A stretch of 64,000 bases of DNA from an uncultured Alphaproteobacteria bacterium (GTDB lineage: Bacteria; Pseudomonadota; Alphaproteobacteria; HIMB59): assembly GCA_902613185.1 (NCBI GenBank), contig CACMGP010000002.1, forward strand, positions 35,378 through 99,377. Reading direction: 5' to 3'. Shown here piece after piece: positions 1-12,177 of this stretch (positions are counted from its first letter, which is position 1; every line of letters begins with the position of its first letter). The notes beneath the pieces were generated by a model. The model worked only from the letters and a program-made list of their open reading frames with translations, was not told the DNA's origin and did not search any database. A program made the translations under genes and the position numbers.

Positions 1-441
1 CCAATGATGGATATTCATCCTCCAGGCACAAAATTTAAAATTGGAAAATCTATTGTGGTAAAAAAAGGAGAGGATTTAACAATTGTAGCAACTGGTGAAA
101 CTTTGCAACGAGCATACTTGGCTAGTGAAATTTTAAAAAAAAGTAATATTCATTGTTCAATTATCAGTATGCATACAATAAAGCCCTTTGATAAAGAGAC
201 ATTTATAGAATTTTCTCAAAACTCTAAAGCAATTTTAACAGTCGAAGAACATAGTATATTTGGAGGACTTGGTGAATGTTGTGCGAGCCTAATTGCTCAA
301 AACAATATAAATGTAAAACTCAAAATACTTGGAATACCTGATGAATATATGATTAATGGATCTCAAGCTGATGTATTAGATCATTATGATATGAGTCCGG
401 AAAAGATAGCTGAAATATCAAAAGACTTACTTAACAAATGA
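1..441 (+). CDS. Transketolase C-terminal subunit (split transketolase, AptB-like), 5'-truncated by the window edge
   Basis: Frame is open from base 1. GKS...GEDLTIVATGE, SMHTIKPFD and TVEEHSIFGGLG motifs of the transketolase C-terminal domain. Confidence 0.9.
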   Translation, partial: PMMDIHPPGTKFKIGKSIVVKKGEDLTIVATGETLQRAYLASEILKKSNIHCSIISMHTIKPFDKETFIEFSQNSKAILTVEEHSIFGGLGECCASLIAQNNINVKLKILGIPDEYMINGSQADVLDHYDMSPEKIAEISKDLLNK

Positions 442-1913
442 GTTATATAACTATTGACTCAAGTACGTCATCTACAACAGTTATTGTTTTTAATGAAAAA
501 TTAGAGATCGTAAAAAGATTTCAAAAGGGACACCGGCAAATAATTACAGATGAAGGTTATATTGAACACGATTTAGAAGAAATTTATCAAAACTTATTAG
601 AGTTAGTTAAAAAGGCATCAGAAATTATGTCAAATCCTAAATTCATCAGTCTAACTAACCAAAGAGAAACATTTACACTTTTTAATAAAAAAGATGGAAA
701 ACCAATACATAATGCAGTTGTTTGGCAGTGCACTAGAGGTCAAAAAATTTGTGAGGATATTCTAAACGATAAGTCAAAAAATAATGAAATTATTGATAAA
801 ACTGGTCTTAAACCAAATACTTTTTTTTCTGGCAGTAAATTAAAATGGGTTTATGAGAACAAATCAGAAGTTAAATCGAAAATTGACAATGGGGATATCT
901 TATTTGGAACAATCGAAACATATCTCATCTATAGACTTACAAACCTAAATTCTTATGTGACTGATACTACAAATGCATCAAGAACCTTATTATTTAATTG
1001 TTTAGAAAATTCGTGGGATCAAAATTTATTAAATATTTTTAATTGCAATAATTTGAAACTTCCAAAAATACTCAATAGTTCAAATATTTTTGGAGAGAGT
1101 GATTTTAATAAAGCATTTAAAAAGTTAATACCTATAATTGGAGTTGCTGGTGATGCGCAAGCTTCATTTTTTGCAAATTTTTGTTTTGATAAAGGTGATA
1201 CTAAAATCACGACAGGAACTGGTTTTAACATTCAAACAAACATTGGCAATGAGATGATTATCGATGAAAATTCATTAACCTCCCTGGCTTTCACAAGTGA
1301 TAAACAGAATATCTATGCATTAGAGTGCCTAAACTCATTCGCTGGAGGAACGATTACATGGCTTAAAAACAATTTAAAATTAATTGATAAGCCTGAGGAT
1401 AGTGAAGTCTTATCAAAAAAAGAAAAAGATAATAATGGAGTCTATCTAATACCTGCCTTTTCAGGGCTAGGTCCTCCATTTTGGATATCAGACGCTAGGG
1501 CTGCATTCTTTGGAATAAGTGCATCTACAAATACCAATCATTTGGTCAGAGCTGGATTAGAGTCTGTTGCTTATCAAGTGGTGGTGTATTTAGAGTTTAT
1601 GAAAAAATCAAGAAATCTTGATTTAAAAAATTTGTCCATTGATGGTGGTATGATAAAAAATAAGTTTTTCCTTCAAATTATTAGTAACCTTTTAGAAATT
1701 GAGTTAAATATCCCTGAAATGGAGGATATGTCATCGTATGGTGCGTTACTTTTTGGAATGCAGTATTATCATAATTTAAAAAATACCACTGGTTTAAACG
1801 ATTTTAAGGTGAAAGACTCTAAAATTATTCCTAATAACGATGACTCTATAAGAAATTCTTTTAGTTCATGGAAAGAAATAGTTGATAAACATTTCGTGAA
1901 AAATCAAGACTAA
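438..1913 (+). CDS. FGGY-family carbohydrate kinase, glycerol-kinase-like (possible apulose kinase)
   Basis: IDSSTSST, EHDLEEIY, TNQRET, WQC, DTTNASRTLLFN, GDAQA, PAFSGLGPPFW and DGG motifs. Diverged from canonical GlpK (DQGTTS/GDQQA). 4-nt overlap with the transketolase gene. Confidence 0.85.
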   Translation: MSYITIDSSTSSTTVIVFNEKLEIVKRFQKGHRQIITDEGYIEHDLEEIYQNLLELVKKASEIMSNPKFISLTNQRETFTLFNKKDGKPIHNAVVWQCTRGQKICEDILNDKSKNNEIIDKTGLKPNTFFSGSKLKWVYENKSEVKSKIDNGDILFGTIETYLIYRLTNLNSYVTDTTNASRTLLFNCLENSWDQNLLNIFNCNNLKLPKILNSSNIFGESDFNKAFKKLIPIIGVAGDAQASFFANFCFDKGDTKITTGTGFNIQTNIGNEMIIDENSLTSLAFTSDKQNIYALECLNSFAGGTITWLKNNLKLIDKPEDSEVLSKKEKDNNGVYLIPAFSGLGPPFWISDARAAFFGISASTNTNHLVRAGLESVAYQVVVYLEFMKKSRNLDLKNLSIDGGMIKNKFFLQIISNLLEIELNIPEMEDMSSYGALLFGMQYYHNLKNTTGLNDFKVKDSKIIPNNDDSIRNSFSSWKEIVDKHFVKNQD

Positions 1914-1936
1914 AAAATTAAAATTTAGCTAGCATG

Positions 1937-1981
1937 TTGACGTGACAATAGGATATTGTAAATGTGACTATATATAGGAGG
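1937..1981 (+). promoter_or_regulatory. frcB promoter region: -35-like TTGACG (1937-1942), operator-like repeats and strong SD AGGAGG (1976-1981)
   Basis: Motifs read directly. ACAATA-GGA-TATTGT inverted repeat at 1945-1959. No clean -10 was identified. Confidence 0.5.
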
Positions 1982-1989
1982 AAATAACT

Positions 1990-3024
1990 ATGAGAAAATT
2001 ATCTCTAGTTCTAGCTTCACTTATGGCTGTTGCTTTTACTTTTGCTACTATGCCAGCAAAAGCAGGAAGCCACGCTGTTGAAGCTTGCTTAATTACAAAA
2101 ACAGACATCAACCCTTTCTTCGTTAAAATGAAAGAAGGAGCTGAAGCGAGAGCTAATGAATTAGGTGTCAAATTATCATTCTTTGCGGGTAAAGTTGATG
2201 GTGACCATGAGACTCAAGTAAGAGCTATTGAGACTTGTATTGCTTCAGGTGCAAAAGGTATTTTAATTGCTGCATCTGACACAAAAGCTATTGTTACTCC
2301 ATTAAAAAATGCTCAAGACAATGGTTTACTAGTTATTGCTCTTGACACACCACTAGAGCCAATTACAGCTGCAGACTCTACTTTTGCAACTGATAACTTC
2401 AAGGCAGGTGAGTTAGGTGGAGCTTGGGTTGCTGCAAAGTTAGGAGCAGATGCTGCTAATGCCAAAATTGCAATGTTAGACCTTAACGAGAGTCAACCTT
2501 CTGTTGGTGTTCTTAGAGATCAAGGTTTCTTATCTGGATTTGGAATCGATGTAAAAGATGTTTCCAGATGGGGAGATGAGGATGATCCAAGAATTATCTG
2601 TAATGAAGTTACAAACGGTAACGAAGAAGGTGGAAGAACTGCAATGGAAAAATGTCTACAAAAAGATCCAGACATAAACGTTGTATACACTATTAATGAA
2701 CCAGCAGCTGTTGGTGCTTATGAGGCATTAAAAGCAGTTGGAAAAGATGATGGTAGCGTTCTTATTGCTTCAGTTGACGGAGGTTGCCCAGGTGTGGCTG
2801 ACGTTGAAAGAGGAATTATAGGTGCTACATCTCAGCAATACCCATTGTTAATGGCTTCACTTGGTGTTGAGGCGATTAAAGCTTGGGCTGAAGATGGTTC
2901 AAAGCCTGAAAATACTCCAGGTCTTGACTTCTTTAACACTGGTGTGAACTTAGTTACAGATGATGCTGCTAGCGGAGTTCCATCAATTAGTGTCAAAGAA
3001 GGCATGGATAGATGTTGGGGTTAA
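1990..3024 (+). CDS. frcB: Sugar ABC transporter substrate-binding protein, FrcB type (fructose/mannose/ribose)
   Basis: Signal peptide; [42 protein letters not shown] and QQYPLLMA motifs; strong SD. Confidence 0.9.
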
Positions 3025-3040
3025 TCCAATAATTTTATTA

Positions 3041-3066
3041 TTCAGGGCAGATTATTCTGCCCTGAA
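3041..3066 (+). terminator. Intercistronic hairpin after frcB (partial terminator or mRNA stabiliser)
   Basis: Perfect 11-bp stem TTCAGGGCAGA / TCTGCCCTGAA with a 4-nt loop TTAT. This position after a binding-protein gene is typical. Confidence 0.75.
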
Positions 3067-3083
3067 GTTATGATATTTTTTAA

Positions 3084-4178
3084 ATGAATAAAGTTTCTGA
3101 TGACATTTCTAAAGATCTAAAAGATCAACCTAAATTCACAACTGATATAGGTGAAAAAGATCAAGATCATCACTCTTTTGATTTAGGTGAACAAACTACA
3201 CTAAAAAAAATTCAACATTTTCTTCACGGTAATCCAACAATAGTTCCTGTTATTATTTTAATATTAAGCGTTATTGCATTCGGCTTCATCGCTGGAGGAA
3301 AATTTTTCTCTGCTTTTAATTTATCTCTGATTGTACAACAAGTTACAATTGTCGGTATTCTTGCAGCTGCTCAAACTTTAATAATATTAACTGCTGGAAT
3401 TGATTTAAGTGTTGCTGCAATGATGGTTTTAGCATCAGTATTTATGGGTAAGCTTTCTGTTGAAATGGGAGTTCCAACCCTCCCAGCAATAGCAGTAGGG
3501 TTTATCTCTGGTATTGCAACAGGTGCTTTCAATGGGTTACTGGTAACCCGCTTAAGATTGCCTCCGTTTATAGTTACTTTAGGAACTTGGAATATATTTT
3601 TTGCACTAGTAATATTCTTTACTGGATCTCAATCTATTAGAAGCTCCGATATTGAAGTAAATGCTCCTCTTCTGCACTTTTGGGGTGAGAGAATAAATCT
3701 TGGGGGTTTTGTATTCACTTACGGTGCGTTTCTCATGATTGGTATTTTCGTTTTTCTCTGGTTTTTACTCAATAAAACTGCTTGGGGGAGGCATGTTTAC
3801 GCAATTGGCGATGATAAGGAGGCTGCTGAGTTATCAGGTATTAGAACTGATAGGATGTTAGTTTCAATTTATGCTGTTGCTGGTCTTGTTGTTGCTATTG
3901 GAGCATGGGTTTCCATAGGTAGAGTTGGTTCAGTTTCTCCAACATCTTTTTATGAGGGTAACTTAGACTCCATCACAGCTGTTGTGATAGGTGGAACATC
4001 TCTTTTTGGTGGAAGGGGCACTATAATTGGATCTTTATTTGGAGCTTTGATTGTGGGTGTATTTAGCTCAGGTCTGTCCATAGCAGGTCTTGATGTATTG
4101 TGGCAAAGATTTGCTTTAGGTTGTCTTATTATAGTAGCTGTTGGAATAGATCAATGGATAAGAAAGGTCTCAGCATAA
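3084..4178 (+). CDS. frcC: Sugar ABC transporter permease
   Basis: Multiple TM helices; GIDLSV, LPPFIVTLG, GRHVYAIGD and AVVIGGTSLFGGRG motifs. Confidence 0.92.
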   Translation: MNKVSDDISKDLKDQPKFTTDIGEKDQDHHSFDLGEQTTLKKIQHFLHGNPTIVPVIILILSVIAFGFIAGGKFFSAFNLSLIVQQVTIVGILAAAQTLIILTAGIDLSVAAMMVLASVFMGKLSVEMGVPTLPAIAVGFISGIATGAFNGLLVTRLRLPPFIVTLGTWNIFFALVIFFTGSQSIRSSDIEVNAPLLHFWGERINLGGFVFTYGAFLMIGIFVFLWFLLNKTAWGRHVYAIGDDKEAAELSGIRTDRMLVSIYAVAGLVVAIGAWVSIGRVGSVSPTSFYEGNLDSITAVVIGGTSLFGGRGTIIGSLFGALIVGVFSSGLSIAGLDVLWQRFALGCLIIVAVGIDQWIRKVSA

Positions 4179-4942
4179 TGCAGCCAGTGCTAGTAGCAAA
4201 TAAGTTGTCAAAAAAATACGGTAAAGTTGTTGCACTCGATAGTGCCGATTTAGAGCTTTATCCAGGTGAGGTTTTGGGAGTAATTGGAGACAATGGTGCT
4301 GGAAAATCTACACTAATTAAGGTTTTATGTGGTGCTGTTATACCTGATAGTGGTGAAATATTGCTTGATGGAAATAAAGTTACTTTTACATCACCCATAG
4401 AAGCAAGAAAATTAGGTATCGAAACTGTTTATCAGAACCTTGCACTTTCACCTGCTTTATCAATCACTGATAATATGTTTTTAGGAAGAGAAATTAGACA
4501 AAAAGGCTTTATGGGTAGTTTTTTAAAATTTTTAGATAAAAAAGCAATGGCAGATGAAGCTAGAAAACGACTGTCTGATCTTGGTCTATTAACCATACAA
4601 AATATAAATCAATTAGTTGAAACATTGTCTGGAGGTCAACGGCAAGGTGTTGCGGTTGCAAGAGCAACATCATTTGGTACTAAAGTCGTTATTATGGATG
4701 AGCCTACTGCCGCTCTAGGTGTCAAAGAAAGTAGAAGAGTTTTAGAATTAATCGGTGAGGTGAGGTCTAGAGGAATTCCCATCATATTAATTTCTCATAA
4801 CATGCCTCATGTGTTTGAAGTAGCTGATAGAATACATATTCATAGACTTGGAACCCGATTATGTGTAATTGACCCAAAGAAACATGAAATGTCTGATGCT
4901 GTCGCATATATGACAGGTGCTAAGCAACCACCTCAAGATTAG
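4178..4942 (+). CDS. frcA: Sugar ABC transporter ATP-binding protein
   Basis: Walker A GDNGAGKST, LSGGQRQ signature, Walker B IMDEPT. Start moved to ATG 4178, overlapping the frcC stop (TAATG), instead of the track start at 4100. Confidence 0.92.
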   Translation: MQPVLVANKLSKKYGKVVALDSADLELYPGEVLGVIGDNGAGKSTLIKVLCGAVIPDSGEILLDGNKVTFTSPIEARKLGIETVYQNLALSPALSITDNMFLGREIRQKGFMGSFLKFLDKKAMADEARKRLSDLGLLTIQNINQLVETLSGGQRQGVAVARATSFGTKVVIMDEPTAALGVKESRRVLELIGEVRSRGIPIILISHNMPHVFEVADRIHIHRLGTRLCVIDPKKHEMSDAVAYMTGAKQPPQD

Positions 4943-5577
4943 TTTATTAAATTAAATTCAGCAGAAATACTTTTACTAATAACATTTAATCCATTTGGAA
5001 GATCATTTTTATAAACTTTATTTTTAATTTGATCATTAGATAGCCCATAACTCTCCCATCTTTCAATTAATCTTTTTTCTAAAATATCTTTATTACAATC
5101 AATCATTATAGTTGTGTCAAAAAAATTATGAATTTTTCTCCATGGTTCTTGATCAAGCAATAAATAATTACCCTCTACTATTATAATTTTTGTATTCTCA
5201 GATATGACTAATGCAGATGATCTTGATAGTTCTAATGATCTATCGAAGATAGGAACAATTACTTCACCCTCATTTTTTAATCTTAATAAACAATTTAATA
5301 AACTTAGTACATCAAATGTTTCTGGTGCCCCTTTTCTCTCAATCAATTTTTTTTTCTCAAGAATATTATTATCTAGATGGAAACCATCCATTTGAAGAAC
5401 ACTTGATTTGTGGTTTTTAGATATTAGTTCGGACTTTAATTTTTCAGATATTGTGCTTTTTCCAGATGCTGGCGCTCCTGCAATTGCAATAAAATAACGA
5501 CTTTGATTAATTTTAATAACATTTTCTAGTATTTTGTTTACTAATTCAGGGAATTCTATTCTTTGGTTACTAGACAT
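4939..5577 (-). CDS. frcK: FrcK-like P-loop kinase (pantothenate/uridine kinase fold)
   Basis: AIAGAPASGKST P-loop, MDGFHLDN, RKGAPETFD and VEGNYLLLD motifs; adjacent to frcBCA. Confidence 0.75.
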   Translation of the reverse strand: MSSNQRIEFPELVNKILENVIKINQSRYFIAIAGAPASGKSTISEKLKSELISKNHKSSVLQMDGFHLDNNILEKKKLIERKGAPETFDVLSLLNCLLRLKNEGEVIVPIFDRSLELSRSSALVISENTKIIIVEGNYLLLDQEPWRKIHNFFDTTIMIDCNKDILEKRLIERWESYGLSNDQIKNKVYKNDLPNGLNVISKSISAEFNLIN

Positions 5578-7024
5578 TTTTTCCTAAATAAAAGCTTTTC
5601 CACCTTAAAAATCTGTCTTTTAAAATATCCGTTTGAATTTCATTCTTGCCTATAATTTTTTTGACTTTTGGAAGACTAAGGGCTTCACTTGGTTTTAAAT
5701 TATTGTAACCAAGAAATGCTATTCTAGCAGCCCCAAAAGCAGCCATTGTATCTGAAGCATCCGTTATAGATAAATCTCTCTCCATCAATGAAGCAAGTAT
5801 TTGTATCCAGCTATCATTTTTAGAACCACCTCCTATTACAAAGATGTTATCTAACTTTATACCTGTCTTAACTAAGGAAGAATAATTATCATATAAACCA
5901 AAAGAAATACCTTCTATTAAACTATATATTAATGTATCTCGATGAGTGTCAATACCCATTTCGTGAAAACTTGCTCTTATATGAGGGTCATTAATTGGGG
6001 TTCTTTCACCTGTGAGATAAGGAAGATAATAAGGGTATCTATTTATATCTGAAAAATTATTTAAAACAGAACTTAACACTTTATTAATCTCATCAATTGA
6101 TGAATTAAAATTATTTATAAACCAATTAACATTTGAGGTACAAGAGAGCATCACTGACATGAGATGCCATGTTTCTGGTAAGCAGTGGCAAAAGGAATGT
6201 ATCGCATCATCATAATTTTTTAAAAAATTTTTTGTTGAGCCAAAAATTACACCAGAAGTACCTAAAGATAATGAAGCATTTCCCTCTTGGTAAAGCCCTA
6301 ATCCAACAGCGGCGGCAGCATTATCTCCTGCTCCACCAAATACTTTGCAAGAGTTATTAAAGCCATATCTTTCTGCAATCTCTTTTTTTATTACACCTGT
6401 TTGATCGGTACCCTCACAAGTTTTAGGCATTTGCGAGATATCCATTGAGCCGATGTCTAAAAGTTTATTAGACCAAGTTCTATTTTTTACATCTAACCAA
6501 TAAGTGCCTGCTGCGTCTGACAAATCACTAAAAAACTCTCCTGTTAAATAAAACCTTAAATAGTCTTTCGGCAATAAAACCTTTGCAATTGAATTAAAAT
6601 TTTTACTTTCGTGTTCTTTCATCCATAAGATTTTTGGTGATGTAAAACCAGGCATTGCTATATTTCCAGCTATATCCATAACAGTCTCGTCAGCCATAAT
6701 ATGACTGCACTGCTTAAAACTACGTGTATCATTCCAAAGTATGCATGGCCTTATGACCTTATAATTTTTATCAATACAAGTTGCACCATGCATATGTCCG
6801 GAAAAAGATACAGCTTTGATCTGAGATAAATCAAATTTCAAAACAATTTGTTTGATACACTGATCTAACGCTTTTATCCAAAATGATGGATCTTGTTCTG
6901 ACCAGCCATTTTGAGGAGTGGACAGTGGTATATCTTCGCTATTTACACTAAACAAAATTTCTTGTTCTTCTCCAAGTAGCAAACACTTCATCGAAGAAGT
7001 ACCAAGATCAATACCTAAATACAT
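5570..7024 (-). CDS. xylB: Xylulokinase (FGGY family)
   Basis: GIDLGTSS, SGHMHG, ILWNDTR, LLPKDYLRF, GAGDNAAAA, SLGTSG and PYLTGERTP motifs. Confidence 0.88.
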   Translation of the reverse strand: MYLGIDLGTSSMKCLLLGEEQEILFSVNSEDIPLSTPQNGWSEQDPSFWIKALDQCIKQIVLKFDLSQIKAVSFSGHMHGATCIDKNYKVIRPCILWNDTRSFKQCSHIMADETVMDIAGNIAMPGFTSPKILWMKEHESKNFNSIAKVLLPKDYLRFYLTGEFFSDLSDAAGTYWLDVKNRTWSNKLLDIGSMDISQMPKTCEGTDQTGVIKKEIAERYGFNNSCKVFGGAGDNAAAAVGLGLYQEGNASLSLGTSGVIFGSTKNFLKNYDDAIHSFCHCLPETWHLMSVMLSCTSNVNWFINNFNSSIDEINKVLSSVLNNFSDINRYPYYLPYLTGERTPINDPHIRASFHEMGIDTHRDTLIYSLIEGISFGLYDNYSSLVKTGIKLDNIFVIGGGSKNDSWIQILASLMERDLSITDASDTMAAFGAARIAFLGYNNLKPSEALSLPKVKKIIGKNEIQTDILKDRFLRWKSFYLGKNV

Positions 7025-7030
7025 TTTTAT

Positions 7031-7078
7031 ATTATATAGAGAATAAAACTATTTTCTATTTTTAGAATTGAGTATAAT
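7031..7078. promoter_or_regulatory. Divergent leaderless-type promoters for xylB and the aldolase-like gene
   Basis: Perfect TATAAT on the minus strand (7036-7031) and on the plus strand (7073-7078), each exactly 6 nt before its ATG. No SD before either gene. Confidence 0.6.
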
Positions 7079-7084
7079 CAAATT

Positions 7085-8077
7085 ATGAAAAAGTCTTTAG
7101 ATCAAAAAATTCTTAGAATAAAAAATAATAAATATTCTCCAAGAGACTTCATTATAGCAGATGCTAAAGATGGCGATCTAGCAATGGGTATCACAACACC
7201 TGGACCAAAAAGAAATGAAAATGGAAAAGTACTAAAAGGATATAAAAATCTAGTAGATTACAAAAATGCAATGATATCGATGACTAAATCTAATTTAGTA
7301 GATATTATGCTGATGTCTGCATCAGTTGGTGAAGATCTTGTAAAAAGAAATTTATTTAAAAATTCAAGTATTACACCTGCTATTAGAATGAATGATACGA
7401 CTGATATCTGGCTGATGAGAAATGGAAATTATAGAAAAACTAATCCTAGACCTTTTCGGTCTGCTCAAATAAACAAAGTAAGTAGATTAGTTAATCTTGG
7501 TTTATTTTCTATAACATTTTCTAATAATGTTGACTATGACCTTGCAATGTTAAATGCCTATAAAGAATATAGAATTGAGGCTTCTAAATATAAATTTAAA
7601 CATTTTTTAGAAGTATTTAATTCCCCGATTGATCTAAATATGAACATAAGACAAATGGGTGACTACATTAACGATTGCATTATAAAAGCAATAGCTGGGC
7701 AAACTAAGGATGAGAGACCTCTTTTTTTGAAAATAGCTTACAATGGTCCAAAAGCAATGGAGGAGCTAGCCAGCTTCGATCCTGAAAATCTTATTGTTGG
7801 TATTCTTGGGGGTAGCAAGGGCACGACAAGAGATTGTTTTGAATTAATTAAAAAAGCCAGTCAATATGGTGCAAAAGTAGCTTTGTTTGGGAGAAAAATT
7901 AACTTAGCTGAAGATCCTATCTTATTAGTAAAAATTATGAGAGAAGTTGTTGAAAGTAACATTAAACCTAAGGATGCTGTAAAACTTTACCATTCTGAAT
8001 TAAAGAAAAATAAACTCATACCCGACAGGAAACTTTTAAAAGACCTTGAGATCACTGAAAAAGTTTTAAAATTATAA
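7085..8077 (+). CDS. Uncharacterised TIM-barrel protein, class I (DhnA/LsrF-like) aldolase-like
   Basis: FLKIAYNGP (candidate Schiff-base Lys), GILGG and LFGRKI occur in the order seen in class Ia aldolases. Sugar-cluster context. Confidence 0.6.
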   Translation: MKKSLDQKILRIKNNKYSPRDFIIADAKDGDLAMGITTPGPKRNENGKVLKGYKNLVDYKNAMISMTKSNLVDIMLMSASVGEDLVKRNLFKNSSITPAIRMNDTTDIWLMRNGNYRKTNPRPFRSAQINKVSRLVNLGLFSITFSNNVDYDLAMLNAYKEYRIEASKYKFKHFLEVFNSPIDLNMNIRQMGDYINDCIIKAIAGQTKDERPLFLKIAYNGPKAMEELASFDPENLIVGILGGSKGTTRDCFELIKKASQYGAKVALFGRKINLAEDPILLVKIMREVVESNIKPKDAVKLYHSELKKNKLIPDRKLLKDLEITEKVLKL

Positions 8078-9049
8078 TTTAGATATATTGGGTAAATTTC
8101 CAGAAGAGGCATTAACTTTTATCATAGATGTCCCAGCTGCATGAGCTTTTTTGAGAGTTTTTTTTATGTCCCAATTTTCATGTATTCCAAATATAAATGC
8201 TGCACAAAAAGCATCTCCAGCTCCAACTGAATTTATTACCCTGCTTTTTGGTAAAACCTTTGATTTAGTGTAAATTTTTTTTGATCTATCAAAATAGAGC
8301 GACTCAGTTGGACTATGAATAACAACTCCTCTAATAATACCCTTTTTGAAAACTTTACTGATTAACTTGATTAAGATTTTTTGATTAAGTTTTTTATTGA
8401 AGTCGTAAATTTTTTTATCAAATAGTATCTCTGCTTCAATTTCATTCAAAAGCAAATAATCGGTGAATGGCAATGAGCTTTCAATAATATTTTTATATTT
8501 AGGGTGCTTATTTGAAACTAAATCTAAAACTGTTATCACATTTTTACTTTTAGCTTTTTTTAAAACTTTTGATAAACGAGTTTTTTTGTCAACATCAAAT
8601 TTGTCCAATTTACCTAATAGTGTAATATATCCGACATAAAGAACTTTAGGTGAAATTTTTAATTGGTTAATTTTAAAATGTTTTTTATCAAGTAAGCTGT
8701 TTGCCCCTGGATAATATAAAAAAGTTCTTTCTTTTTGTTTTTCAAACATACAAACGGTATGAGAAGTAGAAATTTGCTTTGATACAATTAAATATTTAGT
8801 CTCTATTTTATTTTCTCTACAATGTTTTTTTATAATTGATGCATCTGTATCAAGTCCAATTGATCCCATTGCGTACATTGGATGTTTAAATCCTAAAGAA
8901 TTTAAATCCGTCAAAACATTTGATGGACCTCCACCTACGCATTGAAAAGTATTAGAAATTGCTTCTAATTTACCTCTATCAGGTAAATTATCTATTTTGT
9001 ATGTGGTATCTACACACCACATTCCAAGGCCAATTATACCTCTTTGCAT
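8072..9049 (-). CDS. PfkB-family carbohydrate kinase
   Basis: GGGPSNV, ERTFLYYPGAN, LLLNEIEA and NSVGAGDAFCAAF motifs. Confidence 0.9.
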   Translation of the reverse strand: MQRGIIGLGMWCVDTTYKIDNLPDRGKLEAISNTFQCVGGGPSNVLTDLNSLGFKHPMYAMGSIGLDTDASIIKKHCRENKIETKYLIVSKQISTSHTVCMFEKQKERTFLYYPGANSLLDKKHFKINQLKISPKVLYVGYITLLGKLDKFDVDKKTRLSKVLKKAKSKNVITVLDLVSNKHPKYKNIIESSLPFTDYLLLNEIEAEILFDKKIYDFNKKLNQKILIKLISKVFKKGIIRGVVIHSPTESLYFDRSKKIYTKSKVLPKSRVINSVGAGDAFCAAFIFGIHENWDIKKTLKKAHAAGTSMIKVNASSGNLPNISKL

Positions 9050-9714
9050 TATATTTCATTCCAGAGAGGATGTATCGCAACTTCATCTTCTTCAACTTCA
9101 GTAAACCTTCCCACACTTTCTAAAAAATAGTTATCTTTATTATCATCGTTGACTTGAGAAACCTCTCCTGCCATAACCATTCCTGAACCCTCAGCAGAGT
9201 AAAATTTATGATATATGTTTCTTTCAACAGTGACGCTCTGACCTCTTTTTAAAATTAAGGGTTCTCTTGGTGCAACAGAAACTATTTCACCATCAACAAG
9301 AACATCAATTTTAGAGTTTAATTCAATTTGATTTGAGTCGACTTCTAAAAATTCAATTACTAATTCCCCGCCTCCCCGATTAATTATATCTTCTAGTTTT
9401 ACATTATGGCTATGAAAAGGAATTTCTTGACCTTCTCTCATAAACAATAACTTTTCTGCATAGGGTTTGTCATCATTATTACCCTGTATTCCATTCCTTA
9501 TACAAAATAAGGTGATACCTTTTTTTTCAAATTCGCCTTTACCAAAATCAGTAACATCCCAGCCCATTTGATGATTTTTTAAATAATTTTTTAGGTCAGG
9601 ATTATTGTTGTACTCTTCTTTAGACCAATAGCCCCATTTAGGTAGAACCCACGAATATCTATCGATCATATCTTTAGCTTCAGATATTGCAGCATTTATT
9701 TCAGATCTTTTCAT
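9049..9714 (-). CDS. D-lyxose/D-mannose family ketol-isomerase (cupin, DUF1498 type)
   Basis: MKRSEIN, GWDVTDFG, TLFCIRNG, YAEKLL, PFHSH..KLEDIINRGGG and EVSQVNDD..DNYF motifs. Confidence 0.88.
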   Translation of the reverse strand: MKRSEINAAISEAKDMIDRYSWVLPKWGYWSKEEYNNNPDLKNYLKNHQMGWDVTDFGKGEFEKKGITLFCIRNGIQGNNDDKPYAEKLLFMREGQEIPFHSHNVKLEDIINRGGGELVIEFLEVDSNQIELNSKIDVLVDGEIVSVAPREPLILKRGQSVTVERNIYHKFYSAEGSGMVMAGEVSQVNDDNKDNYFLESVGRFTEVEEDEVAIHPLWNEI

Positions 9715-9760
9715 TTCAACTTAGATTATCAAAAAAATAAATAATTGATATAATCAAGTA

Positions 9761-10777
9761 ATGAAAACAATAATTGTTGATCCTTTTCCAAGACAAATGG
9801 ATCTTATTTTCTCTAAAGATAAGCTTGTTTATTTAAAAAAAAATTTCAAACTTATTAACGCTCCAATAAAAAATAAAAAAAATTTTTATCAAAACAATAT
9901 ATCAAAAGCAGATTTTATAATTGGACAACCTGACCTTCCAAATTCAATTTTAAAAAAGGCAGCAAAACTTAAAGCTATATTCAATGTTGAGAGCAACTTC
10001 ATGGACAATATGGATTATGAGTATTGTTTTAGAAATGGTATCTATGTTCTCTCCACTGCTCCTGTTTTTGCTCAAACAGTTGCTGAAATTGCAGTTGGTT
10101 TTACTTTATCTCTCAAGAGGGAAATTCATCAATCACATATAGATTTTATTAATAATAAAGAAAAATATGGATTGGAAAGTAATATGAATGCTAGTTTATT
10201 GCAGAATAACACTGTCAGCTTTATTGGTTTTGGAGATCTAGCCAAAAAGTTAAAACCCTTGTTAGAGCCATTCACAAATAATTTTCTTGCATACGACCCT
10301 TGGCTTCCAAGCAAGTTGCTTGAGGATAATAATTGTAAAATTAATTCTCTTAATGAAATATTTAAAAAATCAGATGTGATATATGTTCTTAGTTCTATCA
10401 CAACAAAAAACAAACATATGATTGATAAAAAGCTACTGAGTCTGATGAAACAAAATTCTTGTTTACTAATTCTAAGTAGGGCTAATGTAGTGAATTTTAA
10501 AGACCTACTAAAAATTTCAAAAAAAAGAAAAATAAAAGTTGCAACAGATGTATTTCCTGAGGAGCCAGTAAAAAAAAATGATCCCATACGTAAATCTAAG
10601 AATATTCTTTTCTCAGCACACAGAGCGGGAGCTCTAGAGTCTGTCTTTTATGAAATGGGCGAAATAGTGTTTGAAGATTTAAAACTAATAAATAAAGGTC
10701 TCCCTCCAAAGTTATGTAGAAAAGCAGAGCTAGAGACTGTCGGAAAACTAAGATCAAAACCAGTAAAGATTAATTAA
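9761..10777 (+). CDS. D-isomer-specific 2-hydroxyacid dehydrogenase family protein
   Basis: FIGFGDLA Rossmann motif, AYDPW, SRANVV (Arg), DVFPEEP (Glu) and SAHRAG (His). Confidence 0.88.
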   Translation: MKTIIVDPFPRQMDLIFSKDKLVYLKKNFKLINAPIKNKKNFYQNNISKADFIIGQPDLPNSILKKAAKLKAIFNVESNFMDNMDYEYCFRNGIYVLSTAPVFAQTVAEIAVGFTLSLKREIHQSHIDFINNKEKYGLESNMNASLLQNNTVSFIGFGDLAKKLKPLLEPFTNNFLAYDPWLPSKLLEDNNCKINSLNEIFKKSDVIYVLSSITTKNKHMIDKKLLSLMKQNSCLLILSRANVVNFKDLLKISKKRKIKVATDVFPEEPVKKNDPIRKSKNILFSAHRAGALESVFYEMGEIVFEDLKLINKGLPPKLCRKAELETVGKLRSKPVKIN

Positions 10778-10816
10778 TTAAGTTGAATTTAACGAATTAA
10801 TTTAGTTCTATATTAT

Positions 10817-11275
10817 ATGCTTATTAAAATTGATCCTATTCTTAGTCCAGAGGTTTTGCATACTTTAAGAGCGATGGGACATGGAGATAAATTAATTTTA
10901 TGTGACTCAAATTTTCCCGCCTATTCGATGAACTCCAGAGTTCATCGTATTGATGGTGTAAATGCTGCAAGAGCTGCCGAGGCTATACTCTCCGTATTTC
11001 CTCTAGATAGCTTTGTCGACTCTCCTATTCAAAGGATGGAAATTGATGGAAATCCAGATCAATTAAATGAAGTTCATCAAGAAATAATTGACATAACTAA
11101 GAAAATCTCAGGAGAGCATTGGAAAATTTCATCTATTGAAAGGTTTAAATTTTATGATGAAGCCAAAAAGGCATTTGCCATAATAACAACAAACGAAACA
11201 AGACCATTTGGATGCTTTATCTTAACTAAAGGAGTTGTTAAACCTGATGGTACTGTTTGGGTACTAGATCATTGA
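10817..11275 (+). CDS. RbsD/FucU-family sugar mutarotase
   Basis: LRAMGHGD, DSNFPA, ERFKFYDEAK and TNETRPFGCFILTKG motifs. Confidence 0.9.
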   Translation: MLIKIDPILSPEVLHTLRAMGHGDKLILCDSNFPAYSMNSRVHRIDGVNAARAAEAILSVFPLDSFVDSPIQRMEIDGNPDQLNEVHQEIIDITKKISGEHWKISSIERFKFYDEAKKAFAIITTNETRPFGCFILTKGVVKPDGTVWVLDH

Positions 11276-12177
11276 GTATTTGTGTATTTGGGATATTCGT
11301 TGCAGATCTGTGTTTCTTTGCAAATGATATTCCAATACCAGGTCAAACCATATTAGGAAAAAAATACATCATCGGACCAGGTGGTAAAGGGTCTAACCAA
11401 GCAATAGCAGCAGCTAGAGCAGGAGGTAATGTATCATTTATAAGTAAAGTAGGTAAAGATAGCTATGCCGATCTTGCAATCTCTTTATACAAGAGAGATA
11501 AAATAAATTATGATGGTTTGGCTATCTCTGAAAATGAATCAACTGGGGCTGCAGGTATATTGATTAATGAAAAAACTGGGCAAAATGCAATAAATGTTGT
11601 TCCAGGAGCTGCTGGTACAATTGATGAAAATTTAATCGACTCAAAGTTAAATATAATTGAGTCTTCTAATGTTTTTTTAACTCAGTTAGAGACACCAAAA
11701 GAGGTAACACTCTATGCTCTAAAAAAAGCGAAAAATTTTAATTGTACAACAATTCTAAATCCAGCACCCGCCAGTGAAATAACTAATGATAACTTTCAAT
11801 ATTTTGATTTTTTTACCCCCAATGAAACAGAAGCAAGTTTTTATTACGGTCAATCAATTAAAAATGAGGAAGACTGTAAAAAAGCAGGAAGTTTTTTTTT
11901 AGACAAAGGGATAAAGAATATAATTATTACACTTGGAGAAAATGGTTGTTATTTTAAAAACAATAAAGAGGAGTTTATAGTACCTGCTTCAAATCTAAAA
12001 AAACCAGTAGTTGACACAACAGGTGCGGGAGATGCTTTTAATGGGGCTCTAAGTGTGGCAATCTCACAAAATAAAAACTATAAAGAAGCTATTGAGTTTG
12101 CTAATCTTGTGGCAGGTGTTTCTGTTACAAGGGAGGGAGCAGCAAATTCGATGCCATACAAAGAGGAATTACTTTAA
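11272..12177 (+). CDS. rbsK: Ribokinase
   Basis: PGGKGSNQA, LTQLE, ILNPAP, TPNETE, ITLG..G and DTTGAGDAFNG motifs. Probable TTG start overlapping the upstream TGA. Confidence 0.85.
   Translation: MSICVFGIFVADLCFFANDIPIPGQTILGKKYIIGPGGKGSNQAIAAARAGGNVSFISKVGKDSYADLAISLYKRDKINYDGLAISENESTGAAGILINEKTGQNAINVVPGAAGTIDENLIDSKLNIIESSNVFLTQLETPKEVTLYALKKAKNFNCTTILNPAPASEITNDNFQYFDFFTPNETEASFYYGQSIKNEEDCKKAGSFFLDKGIKNIIITLGENGCYFKNNKEEFIVPASNLKKPVVDTTGAGDAFNGALSVAISQNKNYKEAIEFANLVAGVSVTREGAANSMPYKEELL

Follow-up and report, generated by a model that had tools for sequence, protein, structure and literature searches.

Our analysis indicates that a 64,000-nucleotide stretch of DNA from an uncultured alphaproteobacterium (the window; G000:C2:35378-99377) probably opens with the 3' half of a four-gene module for the catabolism of D-apiose by an apulose-4-phosphate transketolase, a reading to which we give a probability of about two-thirds. 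The two window genes concerned are the end of tktC, encoding an AptB-like C-terminal transketolase subunit (last 146 codons, window 1..441, + strand; Transketolase_C, 96.6 bits), and the gene behind it, encoding a 491-residue GlpK-like kinase of the FGGY type that we propose to be an apulose kinase (438..1913, + strand; FGGY_N 192.8 bits, FGGY_C 98.6 bits). Judged from sequence, D-apiose or a very close branched-sugar analogue, degraded by the route in MetaCyc PWY-8089, would be the best explanation of this gene set. The first-pass annotation of the window had already suggested apiose catabolism from the tktC-kinase pair, and both of the checks that it proposed, on the upstream genes and on the kinase tree, came out in favour of this interpretation; the seagrass source that it also considered is speculation, since the genomes are open-ocean single-cell genomes.

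Transketolase-dependent D-apiose catabolism by ApsI (EC 5.3.1.36), AplK (EC 2.7.1.233) and AptA/AptB (EC 2.2.1.13) was reportedly described by Carter et al. in 2018. In the version proposed here, every step of which is drawn from comparison, the sugar would be imported by a transporter to which we assign no gene, and an isomerase with a Fucose_iso_C domain, encoded just upstream of the window, would convert D-apiose to the ketose apulose. The GlpK-like kinase would then phosphorylate one hydroxymethyl of the glycerol-like branch of apulose to give apulose-4-phosphate, and the split thiamine diphosphate (ThDP)-dependent transketolase would move the C1-C2 unit of this compound onto glyceraldehyde-3-phosphate, producing xylulose-5-phosphate and dihydroxyacetone phosphate (DHAP). 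Triose-phosphate isomerase would regenerate the acceptor, while the housekeeping enzymes of the pentose-phosphate pathway would take up the xylulose-5-phosphate.

The host genome is streamlined, measuring 1.35 Mb with about 30% G+C. Near-identical loci are found in open-ocean single-cell genomes of uncultured Alphaproteobacteria and in metagenome-assembled genomes (MAGs) labelled HIMB59, and the host lineage is AEGEAN-169/HIMB59.

The split transketolase and its signature

The TGA of tktC overlaps the ATG of the kinase gene (AAATGAG, window 438-441), and by this ATGA overlap the two genes are translationally coupled, as the first-pass annotation had noted; only the tail of tktC lies in the window. 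The full tktC encodes 313 residues with Transket_pyr and Transketolase_C domains (Pfam) and starts 501 bases 5' of the window (L002:17500-18441 = G000:C2:34877-35818, L002 being the stretch C2:17378-37377 that covers the upstream genes). The upstream aptA for which the first-pass annotation suggested looking is indeed there: tktN, an aptA-like gene encoding a Transketolase_N subunit of 275 residues, lies directly upstream of tktC and overlaps it by 8 nt (L002:16680-17507). The aptA and aptB genes of Escherichia coli SE15 also overlap by 8 nt, and the host proteins are 43%, 37% and 28% identical to AptA, AptB and AplK of that cluster, respectively.

To search for a xylose-isomerase-like apsI had likewise been proposed (the fold presumed for the characterised ApsI), and this expectation was borne out in position but not in family. 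An isomerase gene does adjoin tktN, from which it diverges, but its product, a protein of 467 residues, has Fucose_iso_C as its sole domain; an isomerase of the xylose-isomerase-like TIM-barrel (TIM) type occupies the same place in sister genomes. The host isomerase is 53% identical, without gaps over 463 residues, to that of a Rahnella plasmid cluster arranged as substrate-binding protein (SBP)-DUF2291-ATPase-permease / SorC / tktN-tktC-Fucose_iso_C-FGGY, whose AplK is 72% identical to that of E. coli.

The only NCBIfam match of this isomerase is SftI (NF048012), which brings to mind the sulfo-transketolase (sulfo-TK) pathway of sulfoquinovose degradation, in which a FucI-family isomerase (SftI/SqwI) is paired with a split transketolase (SqwGH) that also cleaves an unusual ketose. 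We regard this assignment as extremely improbable and rejected it, first on the SftI score, which is only 89.2 bits for a cut-off of 700, and second on the coupling of a kinase to the transketolase, given a route that is not known to need a kinase. The neighbours that were scanned include no gene for a sulfonate reductase, a sulfonate exporter or other handling of sulfonates, and the host isomerase shares the 53% identity given above with one from an AplK/AptAB cluster.

Evidence for the proposed reaction also comes from the active site of the transketolase. We aligned the kinase-linked enzymes (four proteobacterial AptAB, seven from HIMB59 and eight from Firmicutes/Synergistetes) with the canonical transketolase of the host, a further 11 split transketolases encoded in those Firmicutes genomes, and DXS, and derived from the enzymes of E. 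coli, Rahnella, Serratia and Rhizobium an AptAB signature, which is thus a product of this analysis and not of the literature. In the C subunit, 19 of the 19 kinase-linked sequences read Y-G-x-L-G-x-T/S-H-H (D469L and Q474H, E. coli TktA numbering) together with (A/S)DS, and the window tktC is one of them, with T-H-H and with SDS where the canonical enzyme has ADL. The N subunits of all kinase-linked enzymes, including the host tktN product, read LGHG and WHH. LGQG, WHG, ADL and GED..THQ are retained in the canonical enzyme as well as in five split enzymes of the general kind; all five signature substitutions are present in the host transketolase. Asp469 of transketolase forms a hydrogen bond with the 2-hydroxyl group of the aldose partner, whose stereochemistry it determines, and a leucine at this position would therefore fit a ketone partner such as DHAP, as in the AptAB reaction.

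Leucine also occupies the Asp469 position in three split transketolases that were not found linked to a kinase (L133, L146 and L148, from the Firmicutes genomes G003 and G004), whose motifs are SIL-GNSHY, SSL-GPTHH and STL-GPSHH and which may be other ketone-releasing transketolases. Since these three specialised enzymes carry it too, the AptAB signature is suggestive of the reaction, not exclusive to it. In the tktC tree, the kinase-linked sequences of HIMB59 and Firmicutes form one clade (support 96/98).

A GlpK-like kinase with an altered substrate pocket

GlpK models are the best family match of the kinase, its relatives are annotated 'glycerol kinase' in public databases and its best matches among GlpK structures in the PDB (which include 3G25 and 1BO5) are those of E. 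coli and S. aureus (334 and 343 bits). On these grounds the window could encode nothing more than an ordinary second glycerol/dihydroxyacetone kinase beside a surplus transketolase of the pentose-phosphate pathway, the two not forming a pathway of their own. We consider this highly improbable and rejected it on three grounds: the cut-offs of the GlpK models, the existence of paralogues elsewhere in the genome and the changed pocket of the enzyme. Both cut-offs are missed (TIGR01311, 459.9 bits against 590.35; NF000756, 442.7 against 498), and E. coli AplK, at 495 bits to the 460 of the window kinase, lies under the GlpK cut-off in the same way. A bona fide GlpK (C1:590593-592056; 688 bits, above the cut-off), to which the window kinase is about 37-38% identical (BLAST), and a canonical full-length transketolase (C1:401677-403569; 758 bits) are encoded elsewhere in the host genome, so the window transketolase and kinase represent an extra, specialised set. 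The replacement of the acceptor-binding Asp469 by leucine and the conservation across phyla of the isomerase-tktN-tktC-kinase linkage also speak against a spare transketolase that happens to lie beside a glycerol kinase.

The first-pass annotation had pointed to three altered GlpK motifs, DSSTSS (residues 7-12), WQCTRG (residues 96-101) and GDAQA (residues 238-242). All three are present, and invariant among relatives down to 61% identity, but WQCTRG is not diagnostic: a bona fide GlpK (L098) also reads WQCTR, where the E. coli enzyme has WQCRR. The informative changes relative to GlpK are G12S, R17T, Y135F, Q246A, C269F and F270N (E. coli GlpK numbering), such that Y135, Q246 and F270, the residues with which GlpK contacts glycerol, are all replaced. 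The FGGY/ASKHA fold is shared with GlpK, and R83, E84, W103 and the catalytic D245 are kept in all the kinase groups that were compared. Apulose can be seen as a glycerol that bears a glycoloyl group at C2, and the loss of the bulky F270 and of Q246 would for this reason be just what an apulose kinase derived from GlpK needs.

At positions 12, 17, 135, 246, 247, 269 and 270, the kinases compared fall into distinct pocket classes: G-R-Y-Q-Q-C-F in bona fide GlpK, G-K-L-S-H-S-S in AplK, S-K-Y-S-H-S-S in the Firmicutes type and S-T-F-A-Q-F-N in the HIMB59 genus, with kinases of a sister family intermediate at S-T-Y-S-Q-S-S. The AplK signature used below (K17, L135, S246, H247, S269, S270) was derived here from seven AplK-type sequences. 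Among the 1.84 billion representatives searched, the family of the window kinase forms a single cluster, beyond which identity does not exceed 41%; the best outside representatives for which the pocket was recorded (P0361, P0363, P0364 and P0365) belong to the AplK-like class with S12, S246 and S270 and not to the GlpK class. The kinase is also the fastest-evolving gene of the locus, with 58-66% identity across lineages; the corresponding values at the same loci are 91-96% for the ABC2 transporter downstream of the kinase (window 1990-4942), 85-93% for the isomerases and 69-74% for the transketolase subunits.

Phylogeny separates the kinase from GlpK more clearly than it joins it to AplK. The bona fide GlpKs form a clade (100/99) outside which the window kinase falls, and two runs placed every transketolase-linked kinase in a single clade (support 100/99 and, in the second, 73/99); with AplK left out of the tree, the HIMB59 kinase joins the Firmicutes type (Shimodaira-Hasegawa-like approximate likelihood ratio test, SH-aLRT, 100). 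Rooting with XylB is unreliable, as the stem measures five changes per site and the outgroup joins the longest branch. Of the tree comparison with characterised AplK and GlpK that had been proposed for this kinase, the separation from GlpK was therefore upheld, and that the enzyme is not a GlpK is a firm conclusion; orthology to AplK is not firm, with 28% identity, a different pocket and an unstable position in the tree.

Isomerisation front ends and the nature of the sugar

Within the genus, the isomerisation front end of the locus takes three forms. The Fucose_iso_C isomerase is found in 17 (+2) loci; a xylose-isomerase-like TIM protein of 328 residues (PF01261), encoded on the same strand directly 5' of tktN, in 16; and the TIM protein together with two short-chain dehydrogenases/reductases (SDRs) and an extra ATP-binding cassette (ABC) transporter in 4 (+1). 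Each has its counterpart in proteobacterial clusters. The TIM protein of the genus is 79% identical to that of a Rhizobium plasmid cluster (TIM-tktN-tktC-FGGY-tpiA, beside a DUF2291 ABC system), in which the kinase shows 44-45% identity to AplK together with an identical pocket, and the binding protein is about 88% identical to that of PDB 5IBQ/4RY0 (R. etli RHE_PF00037). The same R. etli protein is the best structure match of the binding protein of the E. coli apiose cluster (5IBQ, 270 bits); 5IBQ is presumably the D-apiose complex of Carter et al. Paired one by one with their counterparts in the E. coli SE15 cluster, the two SDRs of the genus show 57% and 53% identity, against a background of 27-34% among SDRs within the host genome.

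The E. coli cluster (ECSF_RS02670-02715, where aplK is ECSF_RS02700, aptA is ECSF_RS02710 and aptB is ECSF_RS02715) has been validated by growth: strains that carry it (ST131, ST1193 and E. fergusonii) grow on D-apiose, and its two SDRs have been proposed to replace ApsI (PMC13001218). Among the homologues listed for E. coli AplK and for the Rahnella isomerase there was neither a Pectobacterium entry nor a protein named 'apulose kinase' or 'apiose isomerase'. Closer to the host, two genomes from another family of its order, a sister family (L151, G119:C12:208000-222455; L152, G115:C8:15000-34999) carry DUF2291-ATPase-permease-SBP-tktN-tktC-kinase together with a TIM isomerase; their binding protein scores 370 bits against 5IBQ and their kinase is 45% identical to that of the window. 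The TIM isomerases of the genus are 79-84% identical to those of Rhizobium and the sister family. By these comparisons, all three known routes for making apulose and the canonical importer are predicted to be attached to the same transketolase-kinase core within the lineage, and within the genus the front end is to all appearances an exchangeable cassette. That the front-end enzymes stay so close to those of apiose-type clusters (79-84% for the TIM protein, 53-57% for the SDRs) speaks for the same first intermediate. The three-way swap beside an unchanged core amounts to a natural gene-replacement experiment, and it argues that the Fucose_iso_C family, labelled 'L-fucose/L-arabinose isomerase family protein' in public databases, fulfils the role that the xylose-isomerase-like isomerase and the pair of SDRs have in the other variants.

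Comparison of the host with close relatives that carry the TIM variant showed flanks of 94-98% nucleotide identity, an upstream ABC transporter of 78-82%, an isomerase cassette that cannot be aligned, and 71-85% identity in tktN and the first half of tktC, after which identity returns to about 95%. The diverged block round the swapped gene spans about 6.5 kb (L002:11500-18000 = G000:C2:28877-35377) and looks like an old, maintained polymorphism.

The transketolase-kinase core itself appears from its sequence relationships to belong to a lineage that also occurs in Clostridia and Synergistetes, since the host tktC and kinase group with that type and not with the proteobacterial one. The predicted operons of Lachnospiraceae, Blautia and Synergistaceae (L052-L081) have the order FucI-like isomerase-tktN-tktC-FGGY kinase; in addition to the tktC clade mentioned above, their kinases are among the closest outside the HIMB59 family (35-40% identity) and share G12S. 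They differ in their isomerase, which is 25-27% identical to that of the host (45% in one Oscillospiraceae locus), and in kinases that keep Y135 and the AplK-like S246/H247/S269/S270 and score 557-578 bits with the GlpK model, compared to 460 for the window kinase. Set against the described apiose pathway, the host module is thus alike in its split, overlapping transketolase genes, the five signature substitutions, a GlpK-like kinase under the GlpK cut-off and the three kinds of front end. Its predicted departures are the Fucose_iso_C isomerase, the Clostridia-like core, a kinase pocket confined to its family within the top 150 representatives and the loss of the canonical importer; the host cluster also has no SorC/DeoR regulator, DUF2291 ABC importer or tpiA, and its bearer is an open-ocean oligotroph with a 1.35-Mb genome, as opposed to bacteria associated with plants or the gut.

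Several observations weigh against the assignment to D-apiose. The window kinase is just 27-31% identical to enterobacterial and Rhizobium AplK and fails the AplK signature, with F/A/Q/F/N where AplK has L/S/H/S/S, and none of the other clusters within the 150 best representatives has the HIMB59 pocket (S12/T17/F135/A246/F269/N270). Addition of the sister-family sequences turns the clade of transketolase-linked kinases into a grade, with the distant outgroup attaching to a long branch, and a placement as sister to alphaproteobacterial GlpK is not rejected by approximately unbiased (AU) tests (p = 0.19 and 0.09). In the tktC tree, the proteobacterial AptB sequences form a polytomy and are not sister to the HIMB59 tktC. 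The host genome has no apiose importer of the DUF2291, 5IBQ-like type, the genus lacking the one that the sister family keeps, and of the transporters nearby one looks inositol-like (4RU1, rhizopine-type) and the other Frc-like. Finally, we are aware of nothing that would supply free apiose in the open ocean.

It is possible, if unlikely, that the chemistry is the same but that the HIMB59 module now serves another branched or rare ketose, which enters by one of the neighbouring transporters. This would account for a pocket that is remodelled relative to AplK and also to the kinases of the sister family (S246A, S269F, S270N, Y135F) and confined, among the best 150 representatives, to the HIMB59 family, for a kinase that diverges faster than its neighbours (58-66% identity as opposed to 69-96%) and for the absence from the genus of the importer kept in the sister family. 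It is harder to reconcile with front ends that remain near to the apiose-type ones and with a transketolase that keeps the full AptAB signature, and we therefore prefer D-apiose or a very close analogue as the substrate. A broader proposal, that the HIMB59/AEGEAN-169 module has been re-specialised as a whole, with a new kinase pocket, a lost importer and a three-way isomerisation polymorphism in the diverged block of about 6.5 kb, strikes us as doubtful; were it true, either open-ocean plankton release apiose, or a branched sugar related to it, as a pool that has so far escaped notice, or the pathway handles a new substrate.

Of the 71 genomes available for the genus, many of them incomplete, 56 have the kinase, which was found in only two of about 116 genomes from the rest of the order; the same locus is present in a closed genome of the genus (1,410,127 bp). 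Wherever the genes are covered, the order tktN-tktC-kinase is constant in the genus and the kinase always follows tktC. One MAG of the genus has a second kinase copy (L048/L114; G009:C6:648-1769, also G133:C6:663-1793), 77% identical and interrupted by 9-10 stop codons, which is either a decaying duplicate or an artefact of assembly or binning.

AEGEAN-169/HIMB59 bacteria are abundant in oligotrophic surface oceans, and an apiose-type pathway would be near-core in the genus. If confirmed, it would suggest a marine origin for a sugar that is usually seen as a component of land-plant and seagrass walls; UDP-apiose synthesis is on record for a bacterial marine phototroph (PMC5607165). Published surveys of AEGEAN-169 genomes note broad sugar use and, under the terms searched, do not mention an apiose-type module (PMC10308909). 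Simple rules, based on the five signature positions of the transketolase and on the pocket classes of the kinases, could correct 'glycerol kinase' and 'transketolase' labels, and the existence of cultured AEGEAN-169 strains (HIMB59, LSUCC0245) makes testing in culture feasible if one of them carries the locus.

Transporters and sugar genes around the module

The kinase gene is followed by a spacer (1914..1989, + strand) that contains a promoter-like TTGACG-16-TAAATG (1937-1964) and an AGGAGG ribosome-binding site, which suggests that the downstream transporter genes may have their own start. A perfect 15-nt palindrome, ACAATAGGATATTGT (1945-1959), overlaps the promoter-like element and may be an operator; there is no regulator gene in the neighbourhood of the locus. 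A scan for consensus promoters and terminators performed at chance level, and the TTGACG-16-TAAATG element was not significant in it.

The transporter that begins behind this spacer (1990..4942, + strand) is an ABC system consisting of a binding protein (1990-3024), a permease (3084-4178) and a single-domain ATPase (4175-4942), and it always follows the kinase in the genus. Its binding protein matches 5IBQ weakly (74 bits) and a gene for an frcK-like kinase adjoins it. We tentatively regard it as Frc-like, of the fructose/ribose type, and as a candidate importer, although this is uncertain. A 'fructose ABC transporter' has been reported in AEGEAN-169 genomes (PMC10308909), and the system at 1990-4942 is probably the one meant. 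The G+C content of the transporter region is higher than that of its surroundings (0.383 in the 2001-4000 bin compared to about 0.30). The ABC transporter upstream of the module, next to the isomerase gene, was also considered as an apiose importer and is an unlikely one: its best matches are 4RU1 and rhizopine-type binding proteins, and it adjoins iolG and iolE. In one sister-family locus, a transporter of this same type stands beside a separate importer of the 5IBQ type.

Other genes of sugar metabolism lie on either side. Upstream are iolG and iolE, both scoring above their cut-offs, and an HpcH aldolase gene. Downstream, a sugar island (window 4939-12177) encodes the frcK-like kinase, a xylulokinase (above the XylB cut-off), a PfkB kinase, a D-lyxose/D-mannose isomerase and a 2-hydroxyacid dehydrogenase, as well as an open reading frame (ORF) of 152 codons with an RbsD/FucU-like look and a ribokinase-like ORF of the PfkB type; behind these come genes for an aldo-keto reductase, a ROK kinase and a phosphofructokinase. 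The island also includes an ORF of 330 codons (7085-8077, + strand) that has no Pfam match and for which NCBIfam gives only weak hits, to proteins resembling class I aldolases (LsrF, ADH synthase; 27-30 bits), and whose position between xylB and the PfkB kinase gene is kept across the genus, with 60-99% identity.

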